Below, piece after piece: positions 1,164 to 8,627 of a stretch of DNA of 21,709 nucleotides. Under the pieces are notes generated by a model that saw only the letters and a list, made by a program, of their open reading frames with translations, ran no database searches and was not told the DNA's origin. The position numbers were made by a program, and so were the translations under genes. Positions within the stretch are counted from its first letter, which is position 1, and each line of letters opens with the position of its first letter. Location of the stretch: the IMG/VR virus record IMGVR_UViG_2563366822_000014; one strand, 5' to 3'. This DNA comes from a virus (Duplodnaviria > Heunggongvirae > Uroviricota > Caudoviricetes).

Positions 1164-1193
1164 GCCTGTGTCCATATTACGTGGGTAGGATCA

Positions 1194-1354
1194 TCTTAGT
1201 TATTGATGGTAAGGTCTGGCGAACGGTGTATTACCGGTTCGCTACCAAGGAAGAACGGGAAGGAAAGGTGAGCACGAATCTGATTTTCAAGGAGTGTCGC
1301 CAGAGTGCCGCGATGAAGCGGGTGTTGGCATTTTATCGCGGCAATTTTCAATAG
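1194..1354 (+). pseudogene. ren: 3' remnant of a lambda ren-like gene truncated by the IS3 insertion
   Basis: Frame beginning at the IS3 junction translates to LVIDGKVWRTVYYRFATKEEREGKVSTNLIFKECRQSAAMKRVLAFYRGNFQ*, which matches my recollection of the C-terminus of lambda Ren (..GKVWRTVYYRFATREEREGK..SAAMKRVLA..). No start codon; the 5' part is displaced by IS3. Confidence 0.6.
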
Positions 1355-1583: not shown

Positions 1584-1839
1584 ATTTAATCCAATCAATC
1601 AGAAAGACGAGTAATCATAGAGGTACTATCACCCGGGTAACTATTGCTATTATGAACGGATAGGATAGAGGCTTCAATAACATATGCATCAAGTATGATG
1701 GAATATGTAGGTGAAAATGACTTGTGTCAAATTTGTGGAAATGAGTACCATGTTTCTCTGAAATTGATGTCGTTAATGGCTAGTGATAGTGAACTTTTTT
1801 ACTTTATAATTCCTTTGGTTATAACAATAAGGTAAATTT

Positions 1840-2400
1840 ATGAAGAAGATAATATTATTAGCCATGATTATTGGTTCTTTAACAGGTTGCGCTAGTGTGC
1901 CACCATTGAATTTTTCAACACCTAACGTGGGAGTTAGCCAGAAAAAAATAGATGCTGAAATTAAGTCATTAACGGTATCACTTGCTCGTCCAGATGAGCA
2001 GAAAGGGGATATCACTGCTGGTATGGAGGCTATAACTCCAATTTGGCGTGAATCTTTGCAGGAAGCACTCGACCGAATGACTATTTTTCGTGATAGTTCA
2101 CCAAATACGGTTAGCTTAAATGTTAAAGTGTTGGCTCTTGACGTTCCTGCTTTTGGTGTTTCAATGACAACTAAAGCAATTGCAAGGTATGAAATAATCA
2201 ACCGTGCGAATGGTGATATTATATATACGCAGGATATTGAGTCTACCGGTACTGTTCCAGCCAGTTACGCATTCTACGGTATTGTTCGAGCACGCGAATC
2301 TGTTAATCGCGCGGTGCAAAACAACATAACGCAGTTCTTGCAAGCATTAGAAAGTGTTGATCTTTCTCGTCCAATGTTTCCTGTTAGGGTAGCTAAATGA
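1840..2400 (+). CDS. putative lipoprotein (186 aa), unknown function
   Basis: N-terminal signal peptide with lipobox MKKIILLAMIIGSLTGC|AS; good spacing after an AT-rich leader; stop overlaps the next gene start (ATGA at 2397-2400). AT-rich codon usage differs from neighbouring phage genes. Confidence 0.8.
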   Translation: MKKIILLAMIIGSLTGCASVPPLNFSTPNVGVSQKKIDAEIKSLTVSLARPDEQKGDITAGMEAITPIWRESLQEALDRMTIFRDSSPNTVSLNVKVLALDVPAFGVSMTTKAIARYEIINRANGDIIYTQDIESTGTVPASYAFYGIVRARESVNRAVQNNITQFLQALESVDLSRPMFPVRVAK

Positions 2401-2849
2401 AGCGATTATTCGTAATTGCTCCACTCTTAGTGTTGGTTGGATGCGCACAAAATATATCGCCAAATAGTTATTCTGTTGGCTCTGTGGGCATGGTTAATCG
2501 AACTATCGCTGGTACAGTTATTAGTGCTAGGGGGGTTGATATCAGTGGGACTTCCGCGTTAGGCGGGACTGCTGGGGCTGCCGTGGGGGCAACCGCTGGT
2601 TCTGCGCTTGGTGGGGGAGTTCGTTCTAATATCGTTGGTGCCGTTGGTGGTGCAGTCATTGGTGGTATTGCCGGGGCAGCAATCGAATCTTCAGCAACAA
2701 AACAAACAGGCATGGAATATGTTGTCGAAACTGAGAATGGGAATTTAATGACCATTGTTCAAGGCAAAGATCCGTTATTTACTCAAGGAAGTAAGGTCCT
2801 TGTTTTATACGGAAACCCTTCTCGCATAATAACAGACCCGCGTCACTAA
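2397..2849 (+). CDS. SlyB/Pcp-like outer-membrane lipoprotein with glycine-zipper segment (150 aa)
   Basis: Lipobox LLVLVGC|AQN, followed by Gly/Ala-rich zipper (GGTAGAAVGATAGSALGGGVRSNIVGAVGGAVIGGIAGAAI) and a C-terminal beta-rich tail, the same architecture as E. coli SlyB as I recall it. Confidence 0.8.
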   Translation: MKRLFVIAPLLVLVGCAQNISPNSYSVGSVGMVNRTIAGTVISARGVDISGTSALGGTAGAAVGATAGSALGGGVRSNIVGAVGGAVIGGIAGAAIESSATKQTGMEYVVETENGNLMTIVQGKDPLFTQGSKVLVLYGNPSRIITDPRH

Positions 2850-2941: not shown

Positions 2942-3043
2942 ATGCGCACATACAATCCAAACTCTCTTCTCCCTTCACAGATGCAGAAATGCACCTGCGA
3001 TTTTTTGCATCCAGCGTCTGACCTCTGCGGAGGTGAAGCGTGA
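2942..3043 (+). CDS. ylcH: small protein YlcH-like (33 aa)
   Basis: ATG at 2942 encodes [33 protein letters not shown], and the stop overlaps the ybcN GTG start; matches my recollection of the DLP12 ylcH position and size. Small ORF, so moderate confidence. Confidence 0.45.
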
Positions 3044-3495
3044 ACCTACCACAAGATGGCATCAAACTGCATCGCGGTAACTTCACCGCTATCGGCCAGC
3101 AGATCCAGCCTTATCTGGAGGACGGAAAATGCTTTCGCATGGTGCTTAAACCGTGGCGTGAGAAACGCAGTCTTTCCCAGAATGCACTCAGCCACATGTG
3201 GTACAGCGAAATCAGTGAATACCTCATCAGCAGGGGGAAATCGTTCGCTACCGCAGCATGGGTAAAAGATGCTCTCAAACACACATACCTCGGTTATGAA
3301 ACCAAGGACCTGGTTGATGTCGTAACCGGCGAAATCACTACTATCCAGTCGTTACGCCATACTTCCGATCTTGATACCGGAGAGATGTATGTCTTCCTGT
3401 GTAAGGTTGAAGCCTGGGCGATGAATATTGGCTGCCACCTGACTATTCCGCAGAGCTGCGAGTTCCAGCTGCTGCGCGACAAGCAGGAGGCGTAA
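3040..3495 (+). CDS. ybcN: NinB/Orf-family recombination mediator homolog (DLP12 YbcN-like)
   Basis: 151-aa ORF (GTG start) [61 protein letters not shown]... recognised as YbcN; position immediately upstream of ninE. Confidence 0.9.
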
Positions 3496-4444: not shown

Positions 4445-4529
4445 AGTCAGAGATAACAATCAACTAATACTGTTTTATTGATTTTTGCTTGTAATTGGCG
4501 TTCTGGTCTGATTTTTGTGGAGTAAGTTG

Positions 4530-4913
4530 ATGCGTGATATTCAGATGGTTCTTGAGCGTTGGGGAGCGTGGGCGGCTAATAATCATGAAGATGTGACCTG
4601 GTCGTCCATTGCCGCCGGTTTTAAGGGATTAATTCCTTCAAAAGTAAAATCTCGCCCGCAATGTTGTGACGATGACGCGATGATCATTTGCGGGTGCATG
4701 GCCCGTCTGAAAAAGAACAACAGCGATTTGCACGATTTATTAGTAGATTATTATGTAGTCGGTATGACATTCATGTCACTGGCAGGTAAGCATTGCTGCT
4801 CTGATGGTTATATCGGGAAAAGGTTACAAAAGGCTGAGGGCATAATTGAAGGGATGTTAATGGCATTAGATATCCGGTTAGAGATGGATATCGTTGTTAA
4901 TAACTCTAATTAA
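4530..4913 (+). CDS. quuD: late-gene antiterminator Q (DLP12 QuuD-type, 127 aa)
   Basis: ATG at 4530 gives [62 protein letters not shown]...; Cys-rich zinc-binding pattern; sits between the nin region and the lysis genes. The ORF-track TTG start at 4515 is rejected. Confidence 0.85.
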
Positions 4914-5101: not shown

Positions 5102-6184
5102 TTAGAACTGGTAAACCATACCTACAGCAACGATATCATCGGTAGCAACGCCAGATGCTTTCGTGAAATCGCTCTTATCAATCAGGTTGATTTTGTAGTC
5201 AACAAAAGTGGACATATTTTTGTTGAAGTAATAGGTTGCACCTACATCAACATATTCAACCAGGTCCTGATCACCCCAAACACCCAAGTCTTTTCCTTTA
5301 GAATGCAGGTAAGCAACGGATGGACGCAGGCCGAAGTCGAACTGATATTGTGCAACAGCTTCGAAGTTTTGTGCTTTGTTGGCAATATGGTTATTACCAA
5401 AAACAGTCATGTTCTGGGTTTCAGAATAGGTGGTGGCCAGATAGATGTTGTTCGCATCATATTTCAGACCAGCTGCCCATACTTCAGCATTTTGACCAGA
5501 AGCATTCAGACCGTTGTTACCGTAGATAACCTGATTATTAGTGCGATCAGATTTAGCATAGGTTGCACCTACACCGAATCCTTCATACTCATAAGTAGTG
5601 GAGAAACCGAAACCATCACCATTAGCTTCAGTTACGTCAGTGCGGTCATTTTTACCCTGATACTGAGCAGCAAAGTTCAGACCATCAACCAGACCAAAGA
5701 AGTCGTTGTTACGATAAGTTGCAACACCAGTGGTGCGACCAGTCATGAACACATCTGTTTGAGTCCAAGTGTCACCACCGAATTCTGGCAGGACGTCAGT
5801 CCACGCACCGATGTCGTATGCTACACCGTAGTTACGGCCGTAATCGATGGAGCCGTAGTCACCGAATTTCAGGCCAGCGAAGGCAAGACGGGTTTTATCT
5901 TTGGAGGAACCTTGAGATTCAGCGCGGTTGCCTTTGAATTCATATTCCCACTGACCGAAACCAGTCAGTTGATCGTTGATTTGGGTTTCACCTTTGAAGC
6001 CAAGACGGGCATAAGTAGTATCACCATCATCTGCATCATTAGAGGAGAAGTAGTGCTTAGCATTAACTTTCCCGTACAGATCCAGCTTGTTACTGTCTTT
6101 ATTATAAATTTCAGCTGCCTGAGCAGACATCGCCATCAGTACTGATGCAGCTACAGCAGAAATTGCCACTGTTAATTTTTTCAT
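5102..6184 (-). CDS. nmpC: outer-membrane general porin, NmpC/OmpD type (intact, 360 aa incl. signal peptide)
   Basis: [26 protein letters not shown]|[24 protein letters not shown]... ending ...VAVGMVYQF with the classic porin C-terminal Phe; signal peptidase site AQA|AE; recognised as NmpC-like. Confidence 0.95.
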
Positions 6185-6771: not shown

Positions 6772-6987
6772 ATGAAATCCATGGATAAGTTAACAACGGG
6801 TGTCGCCTATGGCACCTCAGCAGGTAGTGCCGGTTACTGGTTTTTACAGCTGCTCGATAAAGTCACGCCCTCACAGTGGGCAGCAATAGGTGTGCTGGGT
6901 AGCCTGGTATTTGGCCTGCTGACGTACCTGACAAACCTTTATTTCAAGATTAAAGAAGATAAGCGCAAGGCTGCGAGAGGTGAATAA
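6772..6987 (+). CDS. essD: class II holin / pinholin (S21-like) with dual-start motif
   Basis: ATG at 6772 gives 71 aa [71 protein letters not shown]; Met1-Lys2-Ser3-Met4 dual start, two TM segments, charged C-terminus. The ORF-track TTG start at 6727 is rejected. Confidence 0.9.
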
Positions 6988-7484
6988 TGCCTCCATCATT
7001 ACGAAAAGCCGTTGCTGCTGCTATTGGTGGCGGAGCAATTGCTATAGCATCAGTGTTAATCACTGGCCCAAGTGGTAACGATGGTCTGGAAGGTGTCAGC
7101 TACATACCATACAAAGATATTGTTGGTGTATGGACCGTATGTCACGGGCATACAGGAAAAGACATCATGCTCGGTAAAACGTATACCAAAGCAGAATGCA
7201 AAGCACTCTTGAATAAAGACCTTGCCACTGTCGCCAGACAAATTAACCCATACATCGAAGTCGATATACCGGAAACAACGCGCGGCGCTCTTTACTCATT
7301 CGTTTACAACGTGGGTGCTGGCAATTTCAGAACATCGACGCTTCTTCGCAAAATAAACCAGGGCGATATCAAAGGCGCATGTGATCAGTTACGTCGCTGG
7401 ACATATGCTGGCGGTAAGCAATGGAAAGGTCTCATGACTCGTCGTGAGATTGAGCGTGAAATCTGTTTGTGGGGTCAGCAATGA
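6987..7484 (+). CDS. rrrD: SAR endolysin (T4-lysozyme-type muramidase, R21-like)
   Basis: 165-aa ORF; N-terminal Gly/Ala-rich weakly hydrophobic signal-anchor-release segment ([20 protein letters not shown]), then E35 ... D44 ... T50 spacing typical of the lysozyme catalytic triad; start overlaps the holin stop. Confidence 0.95.
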
Positions 7485-7942
7485 ACAGAGTAACCGCGAT
7501 TATCTCCGCTCTGGTTATCTGCATCATCGTCTGCCTGTCATGGGCTGTTAATCATTACCGTGATAACGCCATTACCTATAAAGCCCAGCGCGACAAAAAT
7601 GCCAAAGAACTGAAGCTGGCGAACGCGGCAATTACTGACATGCAGATGCGTCAGCGTGATGTTGCTGCGCTCGATGCAAAATACACGAAGGAGTTAGCTG
7701 ATGCGAAAGCTGAAAATGATGCTCTGCGTGATGATGTTGCCGCTGGTCGTCGTCGGTTGCACATCAAAGCAGTCTGTCAGTCAGTGCGTGAAGCCACCAC
7801 CGCCTCCGGCGTGGATAATGCAGCCTCCCCCCGACTGGCAGACACCGCTGAACAGGATTATTTCACCCTCAGAGAGAGGCTGATCACTATGCAAAAACAA
7901 CTGGAAGGAACCCAGAAGTATATTAATGAGCAGCGCAGATAG
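7481..7942 (+). CDS. rzpD: i-spanin (Rz-like inner-membrane spanin)
   Basis: ATG at 7481 overlapping the rrrD stop; [55 protein letters not shown]... with N-terminal TM and coiled-coil periplasmic domain. Confidence 0.9.
7701..7883 (+). CDS. rzoD: o-spanin (Rz1-like outer-membrane lipoprotein) embedded in +1 frame within rzpD
   Basis: 60-aa [23 protein letters not shown]|[40 protein letters not shown] with lipobox and proline-rich body, entirely inside the Rz gene in another frame. Confidence 0.85.
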
Positions 7943-7943
7943 A

Positions 7944-7965
7944 GCTGCCCATATCGATGGGCAAC
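7944..7965. terminator. hairpin between convergent rzpD and borD
   Basis: Inverted repeat around tgcccat-atcg-atgggca (about 8-9 bp stem) in the 31-bp gap between the two convergent stops; no strong T-run, so it may be a bidirectional or stabilising structure. Confidence 0.4.
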
Positions 7966-7973
7966 TCATGCAA

Positions 7974-8267
7974 TTATTGTGAGCAATACACACGCGCTTC
8001 CAGCGGAGTATAAATGCCTAAAGTAATAAAACCGAGCAATCCATTTACGAATGTTTGCTGGGTTTCTGTTTTAACAACATTTTCTGCGCCGCCACAAATT
8101 TTGGCTGCATCAACAGTTTTCTCCTGTCCAATTCCCGAAACGAAGAAGTGATGGGTGATGGTTTCCTTTGGTGTTACTGCTGTCGGTTTGTTTCCAACAG
8201 TAAACGTCTGTTGAGCACATCCTGTAATAAGCATTGCCAGAGCGGCAGAAAACAACATTTTTTTCAT
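7974..8267 (-). CDS. borD: Bor lipoprotein (serum-resistance, Iss-family)
   Basis: ATG at 8267 gives 97 aa MKKMLFSAALAMLITGC|AQQTFTVGNKPTAVTPKETITHHFFVSGIGQEKTVDAAKICGGAENVVKTETQQTFVNGLLGFITLGIYTPLEARVYCSQ; lipobox; lambda-like position after the spanins on the opposite strand. The ORF-track start at 8315 is rejected. Confidence 0.9.
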   Translation of the reverse strand: MKKMLFSAALAMLITGCAQQTFTVGNKPTAVTPKETITHHFFVSGIGQEKTVDAAKICGGAENVVKTETQQTFVNGLLGFITLGIYTPLEARVYCSQ

Positions 8268-8627
8268 CTTATTATCCTGCATTGTTAAAAACGGCAGAAT
8301 CCTATGTGACAACAATTAAACGATAGTTAAATGGATTGATGAAAATTAAAACTATATAGGTGGATGCTCAGCCTATTGGAGGAGGGGGGGCACTCAGAAT
8401 CCTGTGGAATGAAATAAACCGCTCTATCTGTCCATTACCCTTTTAGCTGCGCTGTATCGTCGCCGTATTCCCGCATTAACCATGACCGTAGCCCGACGGG
8501 GAATTCCTTCTGCGTGAGTGTGCGGGAATAATCAAAAACGATGCACACCGGGTTTTACTGTGCTGACAGACGCAGGGTTACCCTCATAGTCGCTTTTCCG
8601 GTGCGATGGTGGAAGAAACCGGGATGT

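Follow-up and report, generated by a model that had tools for sequence, protein, structure and literature searches.

Why does a lambdoid prophage of Escherichia coli carry two overlapping genes for lipoproteins, and do the two products act together? The question is raised by the DNA of IMG/VR virus record IMGVR_UViG_2563366822_000014 (Caudoviricetes), a stretch of 21,709 nucleotides (nt) that is called the window hereafter, in which a gene for a lipoprotein of an undescribed family, lipoA, runs directly into a gene for a lipoprotein related to SlyB, lipoB. The positions of the two genes, the ATGA shared by their stop and start codons and the lipoboxes LTGC and LVGC, all of which had been given in a preliminary description made from the sequence of the window, agree with the sequence (Table 1). 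The findings described below make it highly probable that the pair is a mobile module of two outer membrane (OM) lipoproteins that function together, one of them a SlyB paralogue. The fuller statement, that the module is self-contained and moves horizontally, that its products act together in the OM, and that it serves here as a moron altering the envelope of the lysogen, goes further and seems to us reasonably likely.

Results

The two lipoproteins

The preliminary description had called the product of the second gene SlyB-like, and this is confirmed both by alignment over the full length and by structural comparison. In a phmmer search, lipoB aligned end to end with E. coli SlyB (PDB 7OJF; residues 2-149 against 3-155, E 1.3e-14), and 7ojf_A was the sole significant match when the lipoB model was compared with the PDB by Foldseek (E 1.9e-9, probability 1.00, template modelling score 0.57-0.61). 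The two proteins are about 28% identical, and lipoB is therefore regarded as a paralogue and not as the slyB gene of the host. The model of the lipoB monomer consists of an N-terminal strand, a helical hairpin that aligns with the hairpin of SlyB, and a C-terminal beta domain. The Pfam families PF05433 (Rick_17kDa_Anti; E 3e-4, 21.1 bits against a cut-off of 24.2) and PF13488 (Gly-zipper_Omp; E 6e-3, 16.9 bits against a cut-off of 25) align with residues 55-103, and precomputed matches to PF13488/PF05433 exist for several close homologues. LipoB also matches PHROG 13877 (E 1.4e-98), and the motifs EYV...TxVQG...LYG..R are invariant in the family. Judged by its sequence and its predicted structure, lipoB is a genuine member of the SlyB family, more than a protein that happens to contain a glycine zipper. 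SlyB itself, which is regulated by PhoPQ in E. coli and Salmonella (PDB 7OJF, 7OJG), has the same length and shares the lipobox, the N-terminal strand, the glycine-zipper helical hairpin and the C-terminal beta domain. The two differ in that lipoB is always preceded by a coupled partner gene, with which slyB has not been described, and in that lipoB is mobile and patchily distributed, whereas slyB is a core enterobacterial gene.

LipoA matched a single family, PHROG 12521, whose function is not known; searches of Pfam, NCBIfam and PADLOC gave no family match. Its model is confident (predicted local distance difference test score (pLDDT) 83.5, predicted template modelling score 0.76) and shows a beta-alpha-beta-beta-beta-alpha domain of the alpha/beta type known from the OM lipoproteins XCC0632/PqiC, PelC, LptE and CsgG, which act as rings or plugs or in the binding of lipid carriers. 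The earlier statement that the first gene has no recognizable domain thus holds at the level of sequence but not at that of structure. Between the lipidated cysteine and this domain lies a tether that has no secondary structure in the model (pLDDT 62-69) and is nevertheless highly conserved, with block conservation of 0.80-0.82 and with P21, P22, N24, F25, P28 and G31 invariant or nearly so. Lipoprotein tethers are not usually conserved to this degree, and the segment may therefore have a role in docking. The tether in lipoA and the segment SVGSVGxVNR in lipoB are the most conserved parts of the two proteins.

The lipoA family comprises 969 clusters at 50% identity in a global library. Among its distant members, P0302 (644 amino acids), P0323 (539 amino acids) and P0248 (440 amino acids) have long C-terminal extensions, and some of these relatives start with an ordinary rather than a lipoprotein signal peptide, which indicates that the lipoA domain is also used outside the two-gene cassette. 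No fusion of lipoA with lipoB was found among the long proteins of the family, in which the extensions represent unrelated domains or upstream read-through.

Conservation of the pair across genomes

Had the two genes not been found together in other genomes, the pairing proposed in the preliminary description would, by its own account, have been in doubt. One genome per species (GTDB representatives, about 185,000) was scanned with a lipoA alignment as the query, and 65 loci were obtained, a patchy distribution that spans gamma-, beta- and alpha-proteobacteria as well as metagenome-assembled genomes (MAGs) labelled Chthoniobacteraceae (Verrucomicrobia) and Desulfobulbaceae. In 61 of these loci, lipoA is directly followed on the same strand by a lipoB homologue, and of the 37 viral contigs of IMG/VR in which lipoA was found, 33 carry the two genes side by side. 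Conserved co-occurrence is therefore well established. The proteins retain 45-85% amino acid identity across alpha-, beta- and gamma-proteobacteria, Verrucomicrobia and Desulfobulbaceae, in contexts that are unrelated to one another; the surroundings in Klebsiella oxytoca, Bordetella genomosp. 12 and Luteimonas, for example, differ among themselves, do not resemble prophages and contain many genes for toxin-antitoxin systems, transposases or stress functions. No third conserved gene or regulator was found beside the pair in the 65 loci, where the next commonest neighbours occur in at most 8 closely related loci.

The junction between the genes is as well conserved as their order. A 4-nt NTGA overlap is present in 45-46 of the 61 junctions and a 1-nt overlap in 3, while the genes are separated by 0-7 nt in 11 and by 26 nt in one; in other words, 60 junctions are no wider than 7 nt, and 48-49 of them overlap. 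ATGA overlaps occur in many operons, and a single one is poor evidence by itself, but that of lipoA and lipoB is beyond chance because it is conserved among homologous pairs of different species. Many of the lipoB genes start with GTG or TTG within the overlap, which fits a dependence of lipoB translation on ribosomes arriving from upstream. Translational coupling, which had been proposed from the single junction in the window, thus gains the support of a tight or overlapping arrangement that persists across phyla. In addition, pairwise identities among lipoA proteins correlate with those among the corresponding lipoB proteins (Pearson 0.905, Spearman 0.78; 1378 pairs), and the families are alike in size, with 512 clusters for lipoA and 581 for lipoB. 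As read from these sequences, the co-divergence is that of two genes inherited as a unit.

A few loci call for separate comment. Of the four genomic loci without lipoB, two are from Photorhabdus, one has a truncated lipoA and one is a divergent solo copy. In the Photorhabdus loci (L047 and L050, about 6950-8050), a CRISPR-like repeat array follows a C-terminally altered lipoA in the place of lipoB. The lipoB partner in Luteimonas had been overlooked by the gene caller. A locus in a record titled Nocardiopsis yanglingensis (L030) has the same coordinates, junction and lipoB N-terminus as the Stenotrophomonas-type loci L023 and L027, and its occurrence in an actinomycete assembly is probably due to contamination.

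Signals of the gene pair

Both products are assigned as lipoproteins by the lipobox rule and by their homology to SlyB. The lipobox cysteine is invariant, in lipoA across alignments of 33 and 76 sequences and in lipoB across 35 homologues. Under the classical sorting rule, Asp at position +2 causes retention in the inner membrane. The residue at this position is Ala in both lipoA and lipoB and is never Asp across 53 homologous pairs; the rule therefore predicts sorting of both proteins to the OM. Purine-rich motifs of the Shine-Dalgarno type precede both starts by 7-8 nt. Of the DNA preceding lipoA, the sequence GTGATAG recurs upstream of enterobacterial homologues, and the remainder is not conserved between taxa. 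No canonical terminator was found 3' of the pair.

Table 1. Features of lipoA, lipoB and the neighbouring part of the window
Feature	Position	Strand	Remarks
IS3-family element	1 to ~1198		Interrupts ren
ren remnant	ORF 1181-1354		3' part only; end at 1354 by offset from PhiR30_1
Cargo (moron) segment	1355-2855	+	AT-rich; from ren end to conserved ninB-upstream region
Very hydrophobic open reading frame (ORF), 68 amino acids	1392-1598	-	Inside the same AT-rich cargo; hypothetical in PhiR30_1
Candidate sigma-70 promoter, GTGATA-16-TATAAT	1783-1810	+	30 nt 5' of lipoA; 10 of 12 consensus matches
Shine-Dalgarno-like AAGG, lipoA	1829-1832	+	7 nt 5' of ATG
lipoA	1840-2400	+	186 amino acids; lipoprotein of undescribed family
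lipoA signal peptide and lipobox L-T-G-C	1840-1890	+	MKKIILLAMIIGSLTG followed by Cys17 (codon 1888-1890)
Conserved N-terminal tether of mature lipoA	1891-1941	+	xxPPLNFSxPNVG; as conserved as folded core
Shine-Dalgarno-like AGGG, lipoB	2385-2388	+	Within lipoA 3' end
ATGA stop/start overlap	2397-2400	+	lipoA TGA 2398-2400; lipoB ATG 2397-2399
lipoB	2397-2849	+	150 amino acids; SlyB-family lipoprotein
lipoB signal peptide and lipobox L-V-G-C	2397-2444	+	MKRLFVIAPLLVLVG followed by Cys16 (codon 2442-2444)
Gly/Ala-zipper helical hairpin of lipoB	2559-2699	+	Residues ~55-101; model helices 55-71 and 75-101; predicted membrane-inserted
C-terminal beta domain of lipoB	2700-2834	+	Residues ~102-146, with N-terminal strand 36-50; aligned to SlyB 108-155
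ybcN/ninB	3040-3495		Downstream of the lipoprotein pair; then ninE, ybcO, rusA
Q	4515-4913		After rusA
Porin gene, intact	5102-6184	-	Porin_1, E 3e-152; NmpC/OmpD type

Discussion

A possible mode of action

Rings of 11-13 subunits that enclose nanodomains of lipid or outer membrane proteins (OMPs) are the assembly expected of the SlyB family, and the way in which the two lipoproteins might cooperate can be considered on this basis. Termination of lipoA translation would be coupled to the translation of lipoB by termination-reinitiation, so that the two would be co-expressed at a fixed ratio. The zipper hairpin of lipoB would insert into the OM, and lipoB might oligomerize into rings of the SlyB type, each enclosing a nanodomain of lipid or OMPs. 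LipoA would then be a stoichiometric partner that docks on the ring from the periplasm, perhaps by means of its N-terminal tether, and might serve to cap or plug the ring or to bind lipid. Placed between ren and ninB in the prophage, the module would alter the envelope of the lysogen, most likely through OM stabilization or stress tolerance, which has been demonstrated for SlyB and suggested for YfgH; a by-product could be resistance to phages, colicins or serum. Of the parts of this proposal, a physical complex of lipoA and lipoB is one that we are slightly inclined to accept, and envelope stabilization as the physiological role is put forward tentatively, as a suggestion that might well fail. 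A bolder version would make the pair an undescribed two-component nanodomain system of the OM, a kind of split TraT-like cork in which a lipoB ring has an obligate lipoA cap, plug or lipid loader, which has spread between phyla, has repeatedly been captured by phages and changes the robustness of the envelope and its susceptibility to phages, colicins and serum; this seems rather doubtful to us.

Several points weigh against cooperation of the two proteins in the manner described. Contact between lipoA and lipoB is something that we infer, and the approximately 40 non-redundant pairs are too few for an analysis of covariation between the proteins. Co-divergence is what plain co-inheritance or linkage would produce, and is no proof of contact. 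LipoA homologues occur without lipoB in 4 of the 65 genomes and in 4 of the 37 viral contigs, and distant members of the lipoA family bear other C-terminal domains; the lipoA fold can therefore work without lipoB. In a MAG labelled candidatus Porisulfidus (L058, 6555-6884), the lipoB homologue is a protein of 109 amino acids that lacks the zipper hairpin; it retains both beta segments and the 4-nt overlap with lipoA. The monomer model of lipoB is moderately confident (pLDDT 70), and the formation of rings by lipoB, which appears possible, is an extrapolation from a protein with which it shares 28% identity. The overlap of the genes does not guarantee a 1:1 stoichiometry. Finally, expression of the pair in the lysogen is a presumption, and promoter-like sites in the region are no more numerous than in shuffled sequence.

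Phage carriage and the possibility of an exclusion device

The pair occupies at least three different slots in unrelated temperate phages. In a siphophage-like contig it is flanked by the genes for the tape measure and for a minor tail protein (L096, 8001-9013), in another contig it directly follows a gene for a CI-like repressor on the same strand (L100, 7259-9025), and in a third it is near a convergently oriented gene for a CI-like repressor (L099, 7965-10682). Considering the variable slot, the deviant base composition, the replacement by ybcKLM in relatives and the other slots used in other phages, the pair behaves as a moron. PhiR30_1, a complete phage genome on deposit with E. coli C as the host, carries a pair identical to that in the window, and no other isolated phage genome was found to carry it; a search for carriage on plasmids gave nothing beyond three weak partial matches.

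Such carriage brings to mind a dedicated device for superinfection exclusion or receptor masking, in which the pair would occlude or sequester an OM receptor, such as a porin, FhuA or LamB, and thereby block related phages. The phage lipoproteins Cor and Llp act on FhuA, and TraT is responsible for conjugative surface exclusion. The position downstream of a CI repressor, in which the copy in L100 is found, is a classical site for exclusion genes expressed in the lysogen, and SlyB rings are reported to enclose OMPs, with the structure 7OJF being that of SlyB13-BamA. The distribution and conservation of the pair, however, do not agree well with such a function. Of the 65 genomic loci, only 2 have at least three flanking genes in common with phage loci, a count that is a lower bound because the test detects only phages related to the phage set used, and in Klebsiella, Bordetella and Luteimonas the pair is not situated in a prophage. 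Identities of 60-85% are maintained across hosts with very different receptors, which is unlike receptor-specific binding; neither lipoA nor lipoB matches any of the protein models for defence systems in PADLOC; and the known Cor and Llp, each a single small lipoprotein, are related to neither. Since the cassette occurs mostly outside phages and is highly conserved across hosts that differ in their receptors, exclusion is less likely than OM stabilization, and on balance we consider that the pair is unlikely to be such a device. By the same lower-bound test, the main reservoir of the pair looks chromosomal, with recurrent capture by phages, and the finding that most copies do not look phage-borne favours a general envelope module that was co-opted as a moron. 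A spanin pair (Rz/Rz1) was considered as well and rejected, since both products are lipoproteins, the genes are situated outside the lysis cassette and the prophage has an Rz of its own.

Possible independent action of the two proteins

It is also conceivable that the two lipoproteins are merely co-transcribed and move as one cassette while each acts by itself, lipoB in the manner of SlyB and lipoA in a separate function, such as lipid transport of the PqiC type or lipopolysaccharide binding of the LptE type. The lipoA genes that stand alone in some genomes and phages or are fused to unrelated C-terminal domains, and the correlated divergence that linkage alone would bring about, could be understood in this way. 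A recent preprint, in which the cryo-electron microscopy of SlyB (PDB 7OJF/7OJG) is summarized, describes SlyB rings that enclose lipid or OMPs together with a role in OM stabilization or stress tolerance, proposes similar ring-forming and OM-stabilizing behaviour for YfgH, and describes both E. coli proteins as working without a dedicated partner (bioRxiv 10.64898/2025.12.22.696046). The order, orientation and near-zero spacing of lipoA and lipoB, however, have been kept at protein identities of 45-60% while all of the surroundings were replaced. Linkage without functional dependence decays over such distances, and the pairing therefore sits poorly with independent action. Moreover, no MCE/PqiAB or LptD partner gene is found nearby, and the concentration of conservation in the lipoA tether and the SVGSVGxVNR segment of lipoB fits docking surfaces. 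Independent action thus appears quite improbable, and a module whose two products function together remains the reading that we prefer.

The names given to lipoA in databases lead in another direction. Its homologues and the corresponding coding sequence of PhiR30_1 bear the older name "UDP-N-acetylglucosamine acyltransferase," that is, LpxA, while the newest PGAP records use "YajG family lipoprotein." The former is rejected because lipoA has a lipoprotein signal peptide, gives no hexapeptide or acetyltransferase match and has an alpha/beta fold that is not the left-handed beta-helix. The latter has some basis in a colinear but weak BLASTP alignment with E. coli YajG (26% identity over 166 amino acids, E 2e-4 in a single comparison), and YajG is a lipoprotein of similar size. 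Membership was nevertheless rejected at the level of family models: PF03923 (YajG) was not matched by lipoA at E values up to 1 or by 10 divergent relatives at E values up to 0.1, whereas YajG itself scores 3.4e-52 and 176.8 bits; NCBIfam PRK11627 gave 11.4 bits against a cut-off of 242; and hhalign with lipoA profiles of 33 and 76 sequences aligned residues 1-55 only, i.e., the signal peptide and the first strand, with the YajG sequence. In addition, yajG adjoins ampG and not a slyB-like gene. That lipoA is what either name says, an LpxA-like enzyme or an ordinary YajG orthologue carried as routine housekeeping cargo, is scarcely credible, and its identity as LpxA is already refuted.

Comparison with known systems

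YfgH belongs, like lipoB, to an emerging class of zipper-containing OM lipoproteins that form rings, ring formation of lipoB being a prediction. The gene yfgH is also followed by a second gene for a small envelope protein, yfgI, but the order of the two kinds of gene is reversed relative to lipoA-lipoB, and a spacer of 15 nt takes the place of the overlap. A correspondence between the two pairs was rejected, as lipoA compared with YfgI gave an E value of 16 and lipoB compared with YfgH gave one of 0.009 over the N-terminus only. XCC0632 and PqiC/YmbA (DUF330, auxiliary lipoproteins of ABC transport; PDB 2IQI, 8Q2C) show 7-10% identity to lipoA, and membership in their family was rejected given that PF03886 is not matched and no MCE/PqiAB genes lie nearby. 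PelC, LptE, CsgG and LpoB, OM lipoproteins of the alpha/beta type that assemble into rings or serve as plugs of barrels, have no sequence relationship to lipoA. Genes for their partners, PelB, LptD, CsgF/E and PBP1B, are absent beside lipoA, whose partner is instead a lipoprotein with a SlyB-type helical hairpin.

TraT of IncF plasmids combines in one chain a lipidated helical barrel in the OM and an alpha/beta ring domain, and confers surface exclusion and serum resistance (PMC11733297). Its likeness to lipoB is an analogy only, as the structural similarity is not significant (E 0.25), and the ring domain of TraT is extracellular. Bor, Cor and Llp are likewise lipoprotein cargo carried in variable slots by temperate phages, and bor is present in this prophage too. 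They are single small lipoproteins without sequence relationship to the pair, in contrast to a two-gene module whose main reservoir is apparently chromosomal. Literature searches found no paper on the pair, its accessions or the PhiR phages, which is not proof that none exists.

SlyB-family lipoproteins and phage morons are both known kinds; what is new is the widely conserved pairing of the former with an undescribed lipoprotein family. Glycine-zipper lipoproteins of the SlyB type have only lately been recognized as ring-forming stabilizers of the OM. If the present interpretation is true, the pair would be a natural two-component version of the SlyB system and would offer a handle on its mechanism, given that the fold of lipoA is that of LptE, PqiC and PelC, proteins whose work involves lipids or OM channels. 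Few OM morons are known from phages (Bor, Lom, Cor), and the pair would join them as an envelope module of two genes. The analysis also corrects the acyltransferase name, a misannotation that has been propagated.

Genomic setting in the prophage

The window belongs to a lambdoid prophage of E. coli that resembles DLP12; the origin from a prophage, which had been assumed beforehand, is borne out by the lambdoid gene layout and by the match to PhiR30_1. Over the 1.35 kb that surrounds and includes the pair, many E. coli chromosomes and PhiR30_1 match the window at 100% identity, and 273 of 5426 complete E. coli genomes (about 5%) contain a copy of the region (at least 80% query coverage). The pair itself is intact downstream of the IS3-interrupted ren. 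The GC content is 35-38% over 1200-2200, compared with about 50% in the flanking phage genes, and similarity to other lambdoid phages picks up again at about 2853-2857, 3' of lipoB. In the related phage PhiR34_1 (L112, 1-2470) and in DLP12 of strain K-12, the interval between ren and ninB contains ybcK-ybcL-ybcM instead of the pair, and this interval is a site of cargo swapping. The short hydrophobic ORF at 1392-1598 matches no Pfam family and is absent beside the pair in the other taxa examined.

The porin gene is 2.2 kb away from lipoB, and no porin was found beside the pair elsewhere. Beyond it are lysis genes, with a holin, a lysozyme and Rz belonging to the prophage, followed by head and tail genes. 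Together with bor, which is placed further downstream by matching records, the porin gene and the lipoprotein pair make three separate OM cargo loci in the prophage. A hairpin of 10 bp without a clear T-run (GTCATCGGAG...CTCCGGTGAC) is located at 2890-2918, in the ninB-upstream region conserved among lambdoid phages; this region matches a record of phage 82 in which a possible regulator-binding site and promoter signals are annotated. Lastly, about 290 nt of the window between bor/lysis and packaging genes (8321-8613) does not align with PhiR30_1, in which the corresponding interval is about 1.4 kb and covers the ybcV-ybcW region, an insertion or deletion between prophages that are otherwise 96-98% identical.

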